Made by a program: the position numbers and the translations under genes
Shown here: positions 51,205-61,944 of the stretch, one piece after another
How the letters are laid out: the number at the start of each line of letters is the position of its first letter
How positions within the stretch are numbered: position 1 is the stretch's first letter
Assembly: GCA_014896315.1 (NCBI GenBank)
Contig: JADBKP010000001.1
Span: 201,557-265,556, forward strand
Reading direction: 5' to 3'
Source of the DNA: Limnochordales bacterium
GTDB lineage: Bacteria; Bacillota; Limnochordia; Limnochordales; DUMU01
DNA: 64,000 nucleotides
The notes under the pieces: model-generated
The model's database searches: none
The model's input: the letters and a program-made list of their open reading frames with translations, nothing else
Told to the model about the DNA's origin: nothing

Positions 51205-51975
51205 TAGGTCCGCCGCACATCTGCTGCATACTATACACGATCAGCCAAACCAGCTCCGTTACTCCCCCGCCTCAAGCTGTTGCGTAAACTGCCTCCGCCA
51301 CCCCCCACCGCATAACCATTCACTCCACCCAACCCTCCCCGGCCGCCTCCATCCCACTTGCTCGCCTCCCGTTCACACAAACAACCGCTGCAAGCTGGCC
51401 TTCCGCTGCCACCCGAACATTCCCTGACCGCCACTCTCACTTATCGGGCCGAATAATATACACCCAGCAGCTAAGTCTCGTTACGCCGAACTGCAGCTAC
51501 ACAACGTTCGATTTAATACGTACGATACCCTTCACCGGCCGCCTCACGTTCGGCACTCCGGCCAGCTTTCAGTCCCAGCGCCGGATGCCCGTCTTAGAAA
51601 ACTCACACAATAGGCGTGCCCGAACCGAACGGTAATCACCAAACTCCACACGATCGTCGCCCTTTGATCGAACGGCTTGTAGCTGGGCTTCCCTGCACCC
51701 AGCCTCAGCAGCCCGTCGCATAATATACAGCCCATGGATGCCACTTTCACGATGTGAATGTTCGTGGTTTCGCGTAACCAGCAGTTCAGGCGGGGAAAAA
51801 CAGCGGCCGCCTGCAATTGCCTACGCAGGTGGGACGCTTTCCGTCCCGCCCGAAGTCCGCATACTCATGCAGCCGTCTTCCCTCGCGGTCAACTCTTGCC
51901 CTGCTAAAGTGGGGCTGCGCAATGGCCGCTCCCGCATACCATACAATTTACACTCGGATTATCTACGAATCCGGC
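51205..51975 (+). repeat. Intergenic modular repeat, copy A (modules M1 + short M2 + M3)
   Basis: M1 (51205-51520) aligns by eye with 56681-57000. Short M2 (51520-51650) aligns with 53103-53205. M3 (51650-51975) aligns with 53215-53533 and 57385-57670. Confidence 0.8.
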
Positions 51976-52136
51976 GGACGAATACGGCCCGTCTTCGGCG
52001 CATACGCTCGATCTTTCTCGGTCCAAATCGCCGACCTGATCAGACACGCTTCGACACACCCAAATGTTACCATGGGTGACAGGCTGGTTGGTGTTGGTAC
52101 ATCGCAGGACTGACTTCGGAATCGGGTGGTGAAGTA

Positions 52137-53102
52137 GTGTCGCCAGAAGGGGTGCAGCCGCAGGGAAGAGCTCTTTCGCACGATCAGCTTTTCAAGAGCC
52201 TGCTTGACCGGTTTCTGCCCGAGTTCGTGCAGCTCTTTCTTCCCGACCTGGCCCTCAGGCTGGACATGGGCACGGTCAAGTTTCTGCAGCAGGAGCTGGT
52301 CGGTGACCATGGCAAGGTCGTAGACCTGTTGGCTGAGATGAAGCTGGCCGCAACCGGCGACCCCGTCCTCGTCCATGTCGAAGTCCAGGCCAACCGGGAA
52401 CGAGAGTTTGCACGAAGAATGTTCTCGTACTACGCCCGCATCACCGAACGTTACCCGTACCCTGTCGCTCCTATCGCCCTCTACCTATTCGAACCCACAT
52501 TTAGTGAGCTATCCGCCAGCCAAGAGCTGTGTCGCAACGCCCGCCAGTTGGAGAGTTGGGTGGACAACAGGATCGGCATCGAGACGTTGCGGTATACGTT
52601 TTACGCGATACACTTAAGTCGAGTAGGCTGGCGGCAGCTCGCCGGAATCCGCAACCCCGTCGCACTTGCCCTTCTCGGAGTGGCGGGACGGCGGCTGAAT
52701 GACTCGAACGCACGGGTGCAGGTGACGGTTGAGTTTTACCGCGCATTAATCCAGGCGGTGGTTGAGCCACAGGATCGGCAGCTATTGGCGGGGTTTTTCG
52801 AAGCGTACATGCAACTGAGCGGCGAGGAACGACAGTGCGCGTGGAAGGTGCTCGAATCATTGTTCCCCAGGGAGGCAGAGGCAGTGGAAGAGATCTGGAC
52901 TCCTTTGCACGAGATGGGCAGAGCCGAGGGATACCTAGAAGTGGTTTTGCGCCTGGTTCGCAAGCGTTTGGGCCAGGTTCCACCCGATATTGAGTCATCC
53001 GTCCGCACCCTACCGCCCGACAAGGTGCTCGACCTGGCTGACGCTTTGTTCGAAATCGGCACCATTGAGCAGCTGCAAGCCTGGCTGGCAGCGAAGGCAT
53101 AA
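52137..53102 (+). CDS. Rpn/YhgA-like PD-(D/E)xK recombination-promoting nuclease / putative transposase with DUF4351-like tail
   Basis: 321 aa with a GTG start. 'SHDQLFKSLLDRFLPEFVQLF', 'VLVHVEVQANRE' and 'RMFSYYARI' fit the family. The C-terminal 'LPPDKVLDLADALFEIGTIEQLQAWL' resembles DUF4351. Confidence 0.7.
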   Translation: MSPEGVQPQGRALSHDQLFKSLLDRFLPEFVQLFLPDLALRLDMGTVKFLQQELVGDHGKVVDLLAEMKLAATGDPVLVHVEVQANREREFARRMFSYYARITERYPYPVAPIALYLFEPTFSELSASQELCRNARQLESWVDNRIGIETLRYTFYAIHLSRVGWRQLAGIRNPVALALLGVAGRRLNDSNARVQVTVEFYRALIQAVVEPQDRQLLAGFFEAYMQLSGEERQCAWKVLESLFPREAEAVEEIWTPLHEMGRAEGYLEVVLRLVRKRLGQVPPDIESSVRTLPPDKVLDLADALFEIGTIEQLQAWLAAKA

Positions 53103-53533
53103 GTTCGGCGGGCCGGAGAGCCTTCACTCCCAGCACCGGCTGCCTGTCCTGTAGAGCCCACCCAATAGGCGTATCCGAACCGAACAGTAACGCGAAAACT
53201 TCACACGATCGTCGTCCTTTGATCGAACGGCTTGTAGCTGGGCTTCCCCGCACGCAGCCTCAGCAGCCCGTCGCATAATATTCAGCCCATGAACGCTTCT
53301 TTCACCATGCGAATGTTCGGGATTTCAAGAAAGCAGCAGTTCGGGCGAGGGAAAACAGCGAGGATAACGAGTCTAGCAGGCAGGTGGGACGATGCCAGTC
53401 CCGTCCGCTCGTCGAATAGTCATGCAGCCGCCTTCCCGGGCGACCAACTCATAGCCTGCTACCGCGGTCCTGCCCGCTCCCCGTCCCTGTATACTATTCA
53501 CTCCGCGCTTCGATTACCTACGGATTCGAGAGG
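53103..53533 (+). repeat. Intergenic modular repeat, copy B (short M2 + M3)
   Basis: It starts 1 nt after the Rpn-like stop codon. It shares CTTTGATCGAACGGCTTGTAGCTGGGCTTCC, CAGCCTCAGCAGCCCGTCGCATAATAT, the GGGAC..GTCCC hairpin, AATAGTCATGCAGCC and TTACCTACGGA with the other copies. Confidence 0.8.
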
Positions 53534-60700: not shown

Positions 60701-61301
60701 ACGGGCGGACGAAAGGCGGATGGGTGCCGGCAAACAGCTCCCGTACCGGCAGGTCGTAGGTGGGGGTCGTGTCGTTGTCGATGTAGATGCGAATGTTACC
60801 GACCCTATCGATGCCGGTGAACCAGAGGCGCGTGATCGCCCCCTCGCCCTTGGCCTCGGCCAGCACCCGGTGACCGTAGCTGTCCCGGTACAAGTACCCG
60901 GGCCGGTTTGCGTTCTCATCGCTCCAGTCGTTGTTGCCCCCGGAACGGTCATGGCTGCTGAATTGGCCTGCGAACCGTTCTGGCTCAAGCTGCGGGAGCT
61001 GGCGGATGAGCGGATCATAGATGCCGGCGTCGCCGACGTCGCCGACGTCACCGGCATCACTAACATCTCGTGTTTCAGCTCCCGCACCGGTGTCGCCACT
61101 GGCGCGGATCGGAGTCATCCCAAGCATCCACAGTATCCCGAGGGCCCCAAGCATGCCCAGCATCCCCAGCATTACCCGCATCGTGAGCATCACCCCCAGA
61201 ACCCCCATCAGCCTGAATACCGCAACCCGGATGAGGCACGGACGCAACCCCCGGCTGACTCGTGGGCTGCGGGACTGACCGTTGACCTGGATCTGTAACA
61301 T
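57738..61301 (-). CDS. Secreted multi-domain DUF2961/GH172-like glycoside hydrolase with duplicated beta-sandwich inserts, an Fn3-like module and a C-terminal CBM-like module
   Basis: 1187 aa. DUF2961 blocks: '[12 protein letters not shown]', '[12 protein letters not shown]' and '[34 protein letters not shown]'. Two related inserts: '[32 protein letters not shown]' and '[32 protein letters not shown]'. The start codon is uncertain. Confidence 0.75.
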   Translation of the reverse strand: [1187 protein letters not shown]

Positions 61302-61422
61302 CCCCGTACCACCCTTTCTTGAGCGTCGCGGTGGTCGTACTAACAGCCCGACATTCCTGCAACAAACGATTGTACCGCCCGTCCGTCGTTGTCATTCGAT
61401 TACCGGGGCAGCACTCCTTCGT

Positions 61423-61944
61423 CACCGTCCGCCGTTTGTTCGGCATACTCGAGGAAATACCCCTGGAAGCATCCCGCCTCCTGTTTCATCCACTCCGTCT
61501 GAACCGCCCACACCTTGCCGAACCATCCGGGGGGCGGCGGGGCAGCAGGAAAGGCGGCCATGCGGTGTAAGGAGCAAAGCAACAACGCTCCGGCAACGGC
61601 GACGGCAACGGCGACGGCAATGGCACAGGCGGTGAAGGCAGTGGCGGCGACAACGGCGGCAGAGGCGTGGCGGCAAGGGCGTGGACGTTAGCGGCAGCAA
61701 CAAAGGGATCTCAGCTCGGAAAACAAGCAGTAACCTGACAAAGCCGATACAGAGCCAATAACCGAACATTAAGGCGGGAATCTGAATTGCAGGCGCGGGA
61801 CGCAATCCGTCCCGACCGGAGCCCGCATAGTCATGCAGTTGTCGTCCCCTGATATCGACTGTGCCCCTGCTAAAAAGCGTCGGTGCTTGAACCGCTCCTG
61901 CATATCATACACCTCACACCCCAATTACCTACGGACCCGGGGGG
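61423..61944 (+). repeat. Intergenic modular repeat, copy D (long M2 + 3' part of M3)
   Basis: 61423-61790 aligns with 57000-57375. 61790-61944 retains the GGGACGCAATCCGTCCC hairpin, CATAGTCATGCAG and TTACCTACGGACCC. The 9-mer array follows. Confidence 0.8.

Follow-up and report, generated by a model that had tools for sequence, protein, structure and literature searches.

The rpn (YhgA-like) toxin-antitoxin loci of bacteria are known to be duplicated locally in direct orientation and to be truncated (Zhong et al. 2023, PMC10400941; Kingston et al. 2017, PMC5350276), local direct segmental duplication being the mode of duplication reported for them (PMC10400941). The residues D63, E82, Q84 and R94 are essential in E. 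coli RpnA, which shows little sequence specificity in vitro (PMC5350276). Here we analyse a stretch of 64,000 nucleotides (nt), termed the window, from a Limnochordales bacterium (GCA_014896315.1, contig JADBKP010000001.1, positions 201,557 to 265,556 of the forward strand). It contains an Rpn-like gene together with copies of a non-coding repeat unit, which we name E. The chances are about even that E is the non-coding flank of this Rpn/YhgA-like (toxin-antitoxin or defence type) gene, locally duplicated and recombined, whose conserved islands act as DNA sites.

The locus resembles the described rpn loci in several respects. The N-terminal part of its protein has the nuclease motif of Rpn type (D63, E82, Q84, R94) and the C-terminal domain is variable, several paralogues are found per region in a recombination-prone setting, whole segments have been duplicated without target-site duplications (here the copies R1 and R2 of a relative), and truncated or fused C-terminal forms occur. 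Unlike here, a conserved non-coding companion of several hundred nt with solo copies and islands is not described for those loci (PMC10400941, PMC5350276). A further difference is that the protein studied here falls below the TIGR01784 cutoff.

Several families of bacterial repeats also invite comparison. Neisseria intergenic mosaic elements (NIME) are modular intergenic repeats. The palindrome-associated transposable elements (PATEs) of IS200/IS605 and the repetitive extragenic palindromes and bacterial interspersed mosaic elements (REP/BIME) associated with RAYT are short, have subterminal end hairpins and numerous near-identical copies, and need a Y1 HUH TnpA or a RAYT. Solo long terminal repeats (LTRs) are what remains after recombination between the flanks of a unit enclosed by direct repeats. 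E shares with PATEs and REP-RAYT the lack of terminal inverted repeats and target-site duplications, a conserved hairpin and an orientation bias, but the features that define those systems were not found for E in the window or among the known copies. Similarly, the Rpn-like gene lies between direct repeats of several hundred nt (copies A and B) and solo repeats exist, as with LTRs; however, a reverse transcriptase, an integrase and a target-site duplication are all lacking, and the flanks are unequal, A possessing a module, M1, that B lacks. Like NIME and the BOX elements (boxA-boxB-boxC; PMC3049150), E is non-coding and intergenic, is built from ordered, dispensable modules and adjoins strain-variable genes. 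The modules of those elements are 20-150 nt long and have fold-back potential, and the elements are dispersed in tens to hundreds of copies, whereas the modules of E measure 150-400 nt and its 3-4 known copies per genome occupy one patch and are tied to one gene family. The Neisseria NTS/dRS3 repeats, which are partly palindromic and associated with the gene for the GIY-YIG single-stranded DNA nuclease Ssn, are a precedent in which a nuclease acts on ‘its’ repeat (PMC11893778). The fold there is GIY-YIG rather than PD-(D/E)XK, NTS is a short sequence that occurs hundreds of times, and the link between E and a nuclease is one of genomic position.

Repeats were compared within the window by repeat finding and confirmed with blastn. 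Four non-coding copies in the same orientation, A to D, share modules (M1, M2 and M3), sequence blocks and the palindrome GGGAC-N7-GTCCC far above chance; a degenerate M3 pattern matches four times in the window and an M2-core pattern three times, where 0.00 matches are expected in shuffles. The same-direction repeat family reported in the initial annotation is therefore real, and all of the conserved blocks quoted there are present in the alignments. The number of copies stood but their extents shifted, homology starting ~30-40 nt further left in A and C (at ~51175 and ~56640) and at ~61420 in D. The copies and the gene between A and B are listed below, INS denoting a variable insert.

51175-51980, plus strand: copy A, full length (repeat finding, blastn, nhmmer); M1 51175-51555, short left part of M2 51556-51622, M2 core and right part 51623-51815, M3 51816-51980
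51981-52136, plus strand: spacer from copy A to the rpn-like gene, 86-88% identical to the relative L010 and recognisable also in L019
52137-53102, plus strand: gene for a Rpn/YhgA-like PD-(D/E)XK nuclease of 321 amino acids (aa) with a DUF4351 C-terminal domain, flanked by the co-oriented copies A and B
53103-53535, plus strand: copy B, M2 and M3 only (repeat finding, blastn, nhmmer)
56640-57672, plus strand: copy C; M1 56640-57031, INS 57032-57340, M2 core 57341-57500, degenerate M3 57505-57672
61420-61946, plus strand: copy D; the final ~25 nt of M1, then INS, then M3

Copy A begins ~10 nt past the flagellin stop codon and ends 157 nt 5' of the rpn-like gene, the intervening spacer probably being 5' flank that belongs to this gene. 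In copy B homology opens at GTTCGGC, directly after the rpn-like stop codon, and ends 168 nt before the stop of a convergent SBP gene. Both B and D are truncated at the 5' side near the GTTCGGC junction. The M2 core carries a 29-nt internal deletion in copy C, and in copy D it has been deleted at a CTG microhomology. INS, of ~300 nt (57032-57340 and 61446-61754), lies between the short conserved blocks GTTCGGCA and CCGAACnnTAA, and in copy C it occupies the place where A and B have ~67 nt. Thus, while the modular build from M1, M2 and M3 proposed earlier is borne out, what had been taken for a long form of M2 is this variable insert.

By repeat finding and blastn, A and C are 75% identical in M1 over 300-351 nt, A and B 75-83% identical over 258-428 nt, and C and D 96-97% identical over 363 nt in two blocks; M3 is common to all four copies at 67-72%. 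All variants are derivable from a single ancestor of ~0.8-1 kb, the modules being deletion and replacement variants and not freely combined parts. The conserved unit consists of the M2 core and M3, ~350 nt in all, and lies 160-280 nt 5' of the rpn-like gene on the same strand. No further copies of E were found by nhmmer in the other 53 kb of the window. Slippage-prone tracts adjoin the ends of two copies: a 21-nt poly-C run (57672-57692) directly follows copy C, and ~7 tandem 9-nt units (ATCGACAAC, 61947-62009) separate the end of copy D from the stop of a GDSL gene.

The 321-aa protein matches Pfam DUF4351 with an E-value of 3e-13 (49.9 bits against a cutoff of 25). Its N-terminus scores 28.1 bits with TIGR01784, below the cutoff of 52.1, and Pfam Transposase_31 scores 16.3, below the threshold of 21. 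Because DUF4351 alone passes a curated threshold, the protein is classed from its sequence as a distant Rpn-like protein and not as a certified family member. It carries D63, E82, Q84 and R94, the residues essential in E. coli RpnA (a correspondence made with no direct alignment to RpnA), and D63, E82 and R94 are invariant columns in an alignment of 36 family sequences. A profile search of the PDB with this protein gave no match. Earlier it had been said that no transposase accompanies the repeats; those in the window have no sequence link to them, but the gene between A and B falls in the Rpn family, which is annotated as ‘recombination-promoting nuclease/putative transposase’.

Copies in relatives were located by a metagenome pattern scan and then on contigs encoding homologues of the SBP and the DUF4351 protein. 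Four further copies, R1 to R4, were identified in this way, each adjoining a DUF4351/rpn paralogue on the same strand. Three of them belong to one relative, represented by L010, which is equivalent to L003/L002 (JGI). In L010/L003, a truncated DUF4351 gene comes after R1 and a full one (83% aa identity) after R2, while R3 is preceded by a third, truncated paralogue that is more complete in L020. R4 lies upstream of another DUF4351 gene in L013, from another sample. Repeat and rpn gene are always co-oriented, and their linkage is seen in three or four genomes. The truncated gene beside R1 (L010 475-749, equivalent to L003 2270-1874) fuses ~12 N-terminal codons to the C-terminal ~98 aa and looks like an orphan RpnS-type antitoxin.

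R1 and R2 lie within a segmental duplication. Positions 1-398 of L010 match 5054-5452 at 90%, and 480-1047 match 6308-6835 at 77%, each duplicate also holding a 144-nt piece of a host gene (L005 14054-14186). The duplication spans at least 2 kb and includes the repeat, the spacer, the 3' part of rpn and the host-gene fragment at 77-90% identity. No target-site duplication was seen at any copy. Synteny with L005 and L010 is limited to the SBP-LacI pair, and copies of E stand at both borders of this pair. E is absent in the relatives L005 to L009, whose SBP is 87% or 70% identical.

The eight known copies, from the window and the fetched loci of three or four genomes, all lie in one syntenic sugar/rpn patch. 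Confinement to this locus as a local duplication, which the initial annotation had named as evidence against its own proposals, is largely what is seen, the R1/R2 pair standing within a segmental duplication. The M3 pattern had no matches in representative genomes of GTDB and matched three metagenome contigs, all one locus, although this pattern is too strict and misses R2, R3 and R4. Neither plasmids nor phages held a copy of E by blastn, and nhmmer over the window and 13 other fetched loci returned the known copies only. Four Burkholderiales matches of the M2-core pattern in GTDB genomes were discarded as a 24-nt chance match inside a coding gene, and the single match from two scans of viral contigs was likewise due to chance. 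The repeat family is real, undescribed and lineage-restricted.

Comparison between copies shows that they are old and, to judge from their divergence, of differing age. M3 of copy A is 83-85% identical to that of R1, R2 and R4, all other pairs are 53-69% identical, and M2 identity among copies is 69-84%; at least four to five repeat lineages therefore predate the split of the two genomes. Fourfold degenerate sites in three orthologous genes are 73.3% identical (n=585), and this is exceeded when copy A is compared with R1 and R2, at 82-82.6% over 350 nt (p ~1e-4); the rpn-adjacent M2-M3 unit is therefore under purifying selection. Most of M1 is not constrained, identity being ~41% past the first 140 nt. 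INS is 96-97% identical between C and D (57009-57370 and 61423-61784, ~5 kb apart), while the adjoining parts of M3 are only ~54% identical, which makes the 363-nt tract one of recent conversion or recombination.

Conservation is clustered in islands, comprising the 80-nt M2 core, TGTGAATGTTCG, CAGCAGTTCAGGCGGGGAAAAACAG, CGCATAsTCATGCAG and the terminal TTAyCTACGrAyCC. The islands and smaller motifs are placed as follows.

51662-51741, plus strand: M2 core, the most conserved island, with ~90% column conservation across copies, including CTTTGATCGAACGGCTTGTAGCTGGGCTTCC, CAGCCTCAGCAGCCC and GCATAATATACA
53217-53296 and 57385-57447: counterparts of the M2 core
51831-51847 (copy A), 53386-53402 (copy B) and 61797-61813 (copy D): GGGAC-N7-GTCCC palindrome or hairpin in M3, exact match
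51958-51975, plus strand: common 3' terminus TTAyCTACGrAyCC(GG), with counterparts ending at ~53530, 57668 and 61944
51226-51237, and also at 51451, 51718, 51934, 53273, 56927 and 61900, plus strand, and at 53488, minus strand: directional 12-mer GCATAnnATACA
51446-51512, minus strand: inverted, degenerate copy of the M2 core inside M1, 66% identical over 67 nt to 51667-51733 (E 2e-5 within copy A)

The arms of the palindrome belong to the conserved islands. In copy C (57526-57542) it has one mismatch (GCCCC), and an alternative 13-bp stem can form at 57516-57552. It had been proposed that the stem is kept while the loop is free to vary; the stem is indeed exact in A, B and D and the loops differ, but the loop always has C at position 6 and is largely conserved at positions 1, 2 and 7. 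The 3' terminus forms a terminal hairpin, CGGATT-N7-AATCCG, in the A lineage only. All eight window matches of GCATAnnATACA fall within the repeats, where 1.5 are expected, and those in copy A are spaced by 225, 267 and 216 nt. Four ancient tandem units of ~230 nt, each starting at GCATAnnATACA, were considered as the basis of E and dropped, pairwise scores being no better than in shuffles. The inverted M2-core copy is weaker in copy C (~56943-56975) and absent from R1 of the relative. Readings of the conserved blocks as dif/Xer sites, Cheo (LexA) boxes, or sigma-54 or extracytoplasmic function (ECF) promoters were dismissed by eye, the second half-site or the spacing failing to fit.

E does not appear to encode protein. 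Mismatches between copies are flat over the codon positions (22/20/16 for A and R1), with no 3-periodicity. Open reading frames (ORFs) of 60-173 aa occur in the copies and the minus strand of INS has a protein-like stretch, PPGWFGKVW..FQGYFLEYAE, which might suggest the remnants of a decayed gene family. The ORFs are not conserved, however, with stops in A and R3 where B, R1 and R2 are open, and the differences between C and D in the protein-like stretch are mostly non-synonymous. Six-frame translation of the joined M2-M3 of A, B and R1 had no match among 5.8 billion proteins, the INS minus-strand ORF had two low-complexity matches only among 1.84 billion representatives, and Pfam and PHROGs gave nothing for 11 ORFs inside the repeats. 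The family is thus non-coding, as first proposed, and the consistent reading frame that would have spoken for a decayed gene was not found; this origin is close to refuted.

A structured RNA, in which the palindrome would be a helix, was one suggestion of the initial annotation. E might then be a small RNA, cis leader or antisense RNA, perhaps transcribed from the minus strand, regulating the rpn module or the sugar genes. Conserved islands within a diverged background are in keeping with this idea, as are a promoter-like sequence on the minus strand of M2 (GTGAAA-17-TATATT), kept in six of eight copies, and the resemblance of GCATAnnATACA on that strand to a -10 element. Yet counts of promoters and terminators are not above those in shuffles and there is no conserved terminator. 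In the repeats ARAGORN found no tRNA and Rfam 15 gave no match at gathering thresholds nor at E <= 5, in line with the original impression that they resemble no tRNA or known RNA family. RNAalifold covariation terms, computed for four and eight copies on both strands, were -0.19, +0.5, +1.41 and +0.05, with many broken pairs, although power is low with eight sequences, three of them close relatives. For the extended GGGAC hairpin, a GTGG/CCGC helix and the 3'-terminal hairpin, paired fraction and covariation equalled those of shuffled alignments on both strands. In single-sequence folding the hairpin reaches significant stability only in A (z = -2.8) and C (z = -3.9); it is non-significant in five of the eight copies and lost in R4. 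Five of the eight copies have a perfect 5-bp stem core. In each of C, R1 and R4 it is altered by a single transition with no compensating change; these three all keep a G.U pair on the minus strand and give A.C on the plus strand, which is suggestive, though n=3. The predicted M2-core helix is broken by two uncompensated transversions in R1, R2 and R4. An RNA has no positive support, and we regard it as distinctly unlikely. The arms are conserved as sequence, and a palindromic protein site would fit at least as well as a hairpin in RNA or single-stranded DNA.

Since the islands are conserved in sequence without compensatory change, they most likely act as double-stranded DNA sites and not as RNA helices. 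The M2 core, GGGAC-N7-GTCCC, CGCATAsTCATGCA, GCATAnnATACA and CTACGrAyCC could be putative sites of operator or promoter type for rpn, or preferred sites of recombination. Under the reading of E as an rpn flank, this flank would have been copied locally through direct segmental duplication, which is demonstrated for R1 and R2 and which we infer for A to D. The copies would then have been trimmed and rearranged through recombination of homologous, illegitimate and conversion type, of which the solo copies, the C-D tract, the microhomology deletions and the breakpoints would be the signs. Some copies lie just downstream of rpn paralogues, or persist alone after loss of the gene, in the manner of solo LTRs.

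Several observations weigh against this account. B, C, D and R3, which have four unrelated right flanks, end within ~12 nt of the same motif; a shared 3' terminus is predicted by the end of a discrete element or by a recombination site, but not by random duplication and deletion. This is the main unexplained fact, and because of it a trans-mobilised element or a site-specific recombination site stays in contention. The same four copies each face the 3' end of a convergent gene, 14-170 nt away. C and D flank a DUF2961 gene with no rpn remnant nearby, and the sugar genes that separate copies run on the opposite strand; a simple tandem array of repeat plus rpn is therefore insufficient. The M2 core is ~90% identical even in solo copies, suggesting that its function does not depend on an rpn gene alongside, although conversion between copies could account for it instead. 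Finally, the more distant DUF4351 loci L012, L014 and L021 have no E-type flank, and L019 keeps only the last ~25 nt of E (TCTACGAATCC) and the conserved spacer. In L019 (1097-1400), from another metagenome-assembled genome, the remnant stands directly after an argS-like stop, by a DUF4351 homologue of 60% aa identity, and this state is either ancestral, lacking E, or a deletion. A flank of this kind as a general property of DUF4351 genes was rejected, distant homologues being without one.

The shared 3' terminus, together with different flanks and varying 5' extents, is what would be expected of a non-autonomous mobile element with a fixed 3' end and a variable 5' end, moved in trans by a hairpin-dependent HUH or single-stranded DNA transposase, a rolling-circle enzyme or a site-specific recombinase. 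The single orientation of all copies in two genomes, their location at synteny breakpoints, the likeness of L019 to an rpn flank missing most of E, and the palindrome and repeated 12-mer as putative protein-binding sites would all agree with such an element. The copies are however 53-84% identical apart from the C-D tract in INS, so there has been no recent burst; every known copy lies in one patch, R1 and R2 were copied along with host DNA, and the metagenome scan, strict as its pattern was, yielded one locus only. As the initial annotation stated, terminal inverted repeats are lacking, apart from a 6-nt GGTCCG/CGGACC, which is not conserved in R1, and with no target-site duplication a miniature inverted-repeat transposable element is not indicated. 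Its suggestion of a partner for a hairpin-dependent transposase fares less well: GGGAC-N7-GTCCC lies 130-150 nt from the 3' end and is not subterminal, it has no 5' counterpart, there are no near-identical dispersed copies, and none of ~55 ORFs scanned across the 64-kb window encodes a Y1/HUH protein, TnpB or RAYT. The transposases that the window does encode (IS21, IS3 fragments, IS4/5-like DDE and IS110) have no sequence link to E. Mobilisation in trans is judged unlikely.

Alternatively, E could mark the boundaries of cassettes, as integron attC or Xer/pdif-like sites do, with rpn or DUF2961 swapped by a site-specific enzyme. Repeats of one orientation occupy intergenic spaces whatever the orientation of the genes, and the genes between them vary among genomes. 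GTTCGGC and GCCGAAC bracket the variable region and resemble integron core and inverse-core sites but for one position, and CCGAAC/GTTCGG is enriched (four CCGAAC found, 0.33 expected). Against this, E is 350-1000 nt long compared with 57-141 nt for attC, the order of core and inverse core is reversed relative to R''(RYYYAAC)...R'(GTTRRRY) besides the position off consensus, the window yielded neither a tyrosine recombinase nor IntI, SBP-LacI is no cassette but an ancestral block kept in synteny, and the boundaries are not clean. Cassette sites are thus highly improbable. E could also be the cis-acting DNA partner of the adjacent Rpn-like nuclease. The enzyme, or its DUF4351 domain, would recognise islands such as GGGAC-N7-GTCCC, the M2 core or the terminal CTACGrAyCC, and cutting at them would give rise to duplication independent of RecA, to the replacement of cassettes and to the fixed 3' end of the copies. 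A role as preferred substrate is made less likely by the low sequence specificity of E. coli RpnA in vitro, and we hold this proposal to be very unlikely.

Other features of the window lie outside the repeats. A cyclic-di-GMP-II riboswitch (48794-48877, minus strand; 55.1 bits, above the gathering score) is located between the flagellin gene (49178-51166, plus strand) and a minus-strand sugar-modification operon encoding a hexapeptide transferase (47497-48225) and a DegT aminotransferase (46319-47500), and may couple c-di-GMP to flagellin glycosylation genes. Duplicated UDP-GlcNAc 2-epimerase segments (2486-3457 and 18654-19567, 85-87% identical) bracket ~15 kb with a RAMP protein (7483-8349), an IS21 IstB (12293-13087), IS3-type integrase fragments and a DUF4411 plus ImmA/IrrE pair (15842-17594); this stretch looks like mobile or defence DNA inserted in a polysaccharide or flagellin-glycosylation cluster. 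Within a glycosyltransferase cluster, the IS4/IS5-like DDE transposase (30263-31666) stands beside the IS110-family transposase (31978-33153, minus strand). Repeats of the GGCxCAGGC type with a 12-nt period occur in the flagellin gene (49742-49887) and the 3' part of a LacI-family gene (55247-55326), where they correspond to low-complexity protein segments.

Rpn proteins are widespread, and the locus described here bears on how rpn loci multiply and why they promote recombination. It links a conserved non-coding element with three or four rpn paralogues, the element standing at every rearrangement breakpoint around a sugar operon. It is thus a compact natural system in which to ask whether such sequences are the preferred DNA sites of an Rpn-like nuclease or the regulatory DNA of the rpn locus itself. 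If the more ordinary reading, that of an rpn flank, is right, it serves mainly as a caution: where clustered intergenic repeats near a defence gene contain conserved palindromes, neither an RNA gene nor a transposon need be involved. If instead E were the partner of the nuclease, it would be the first defined DNA substrate for a protein of the Rpn family, and would provide a mechanism both for the spread of rpn loci and for the restructuring of neighbouring operons.

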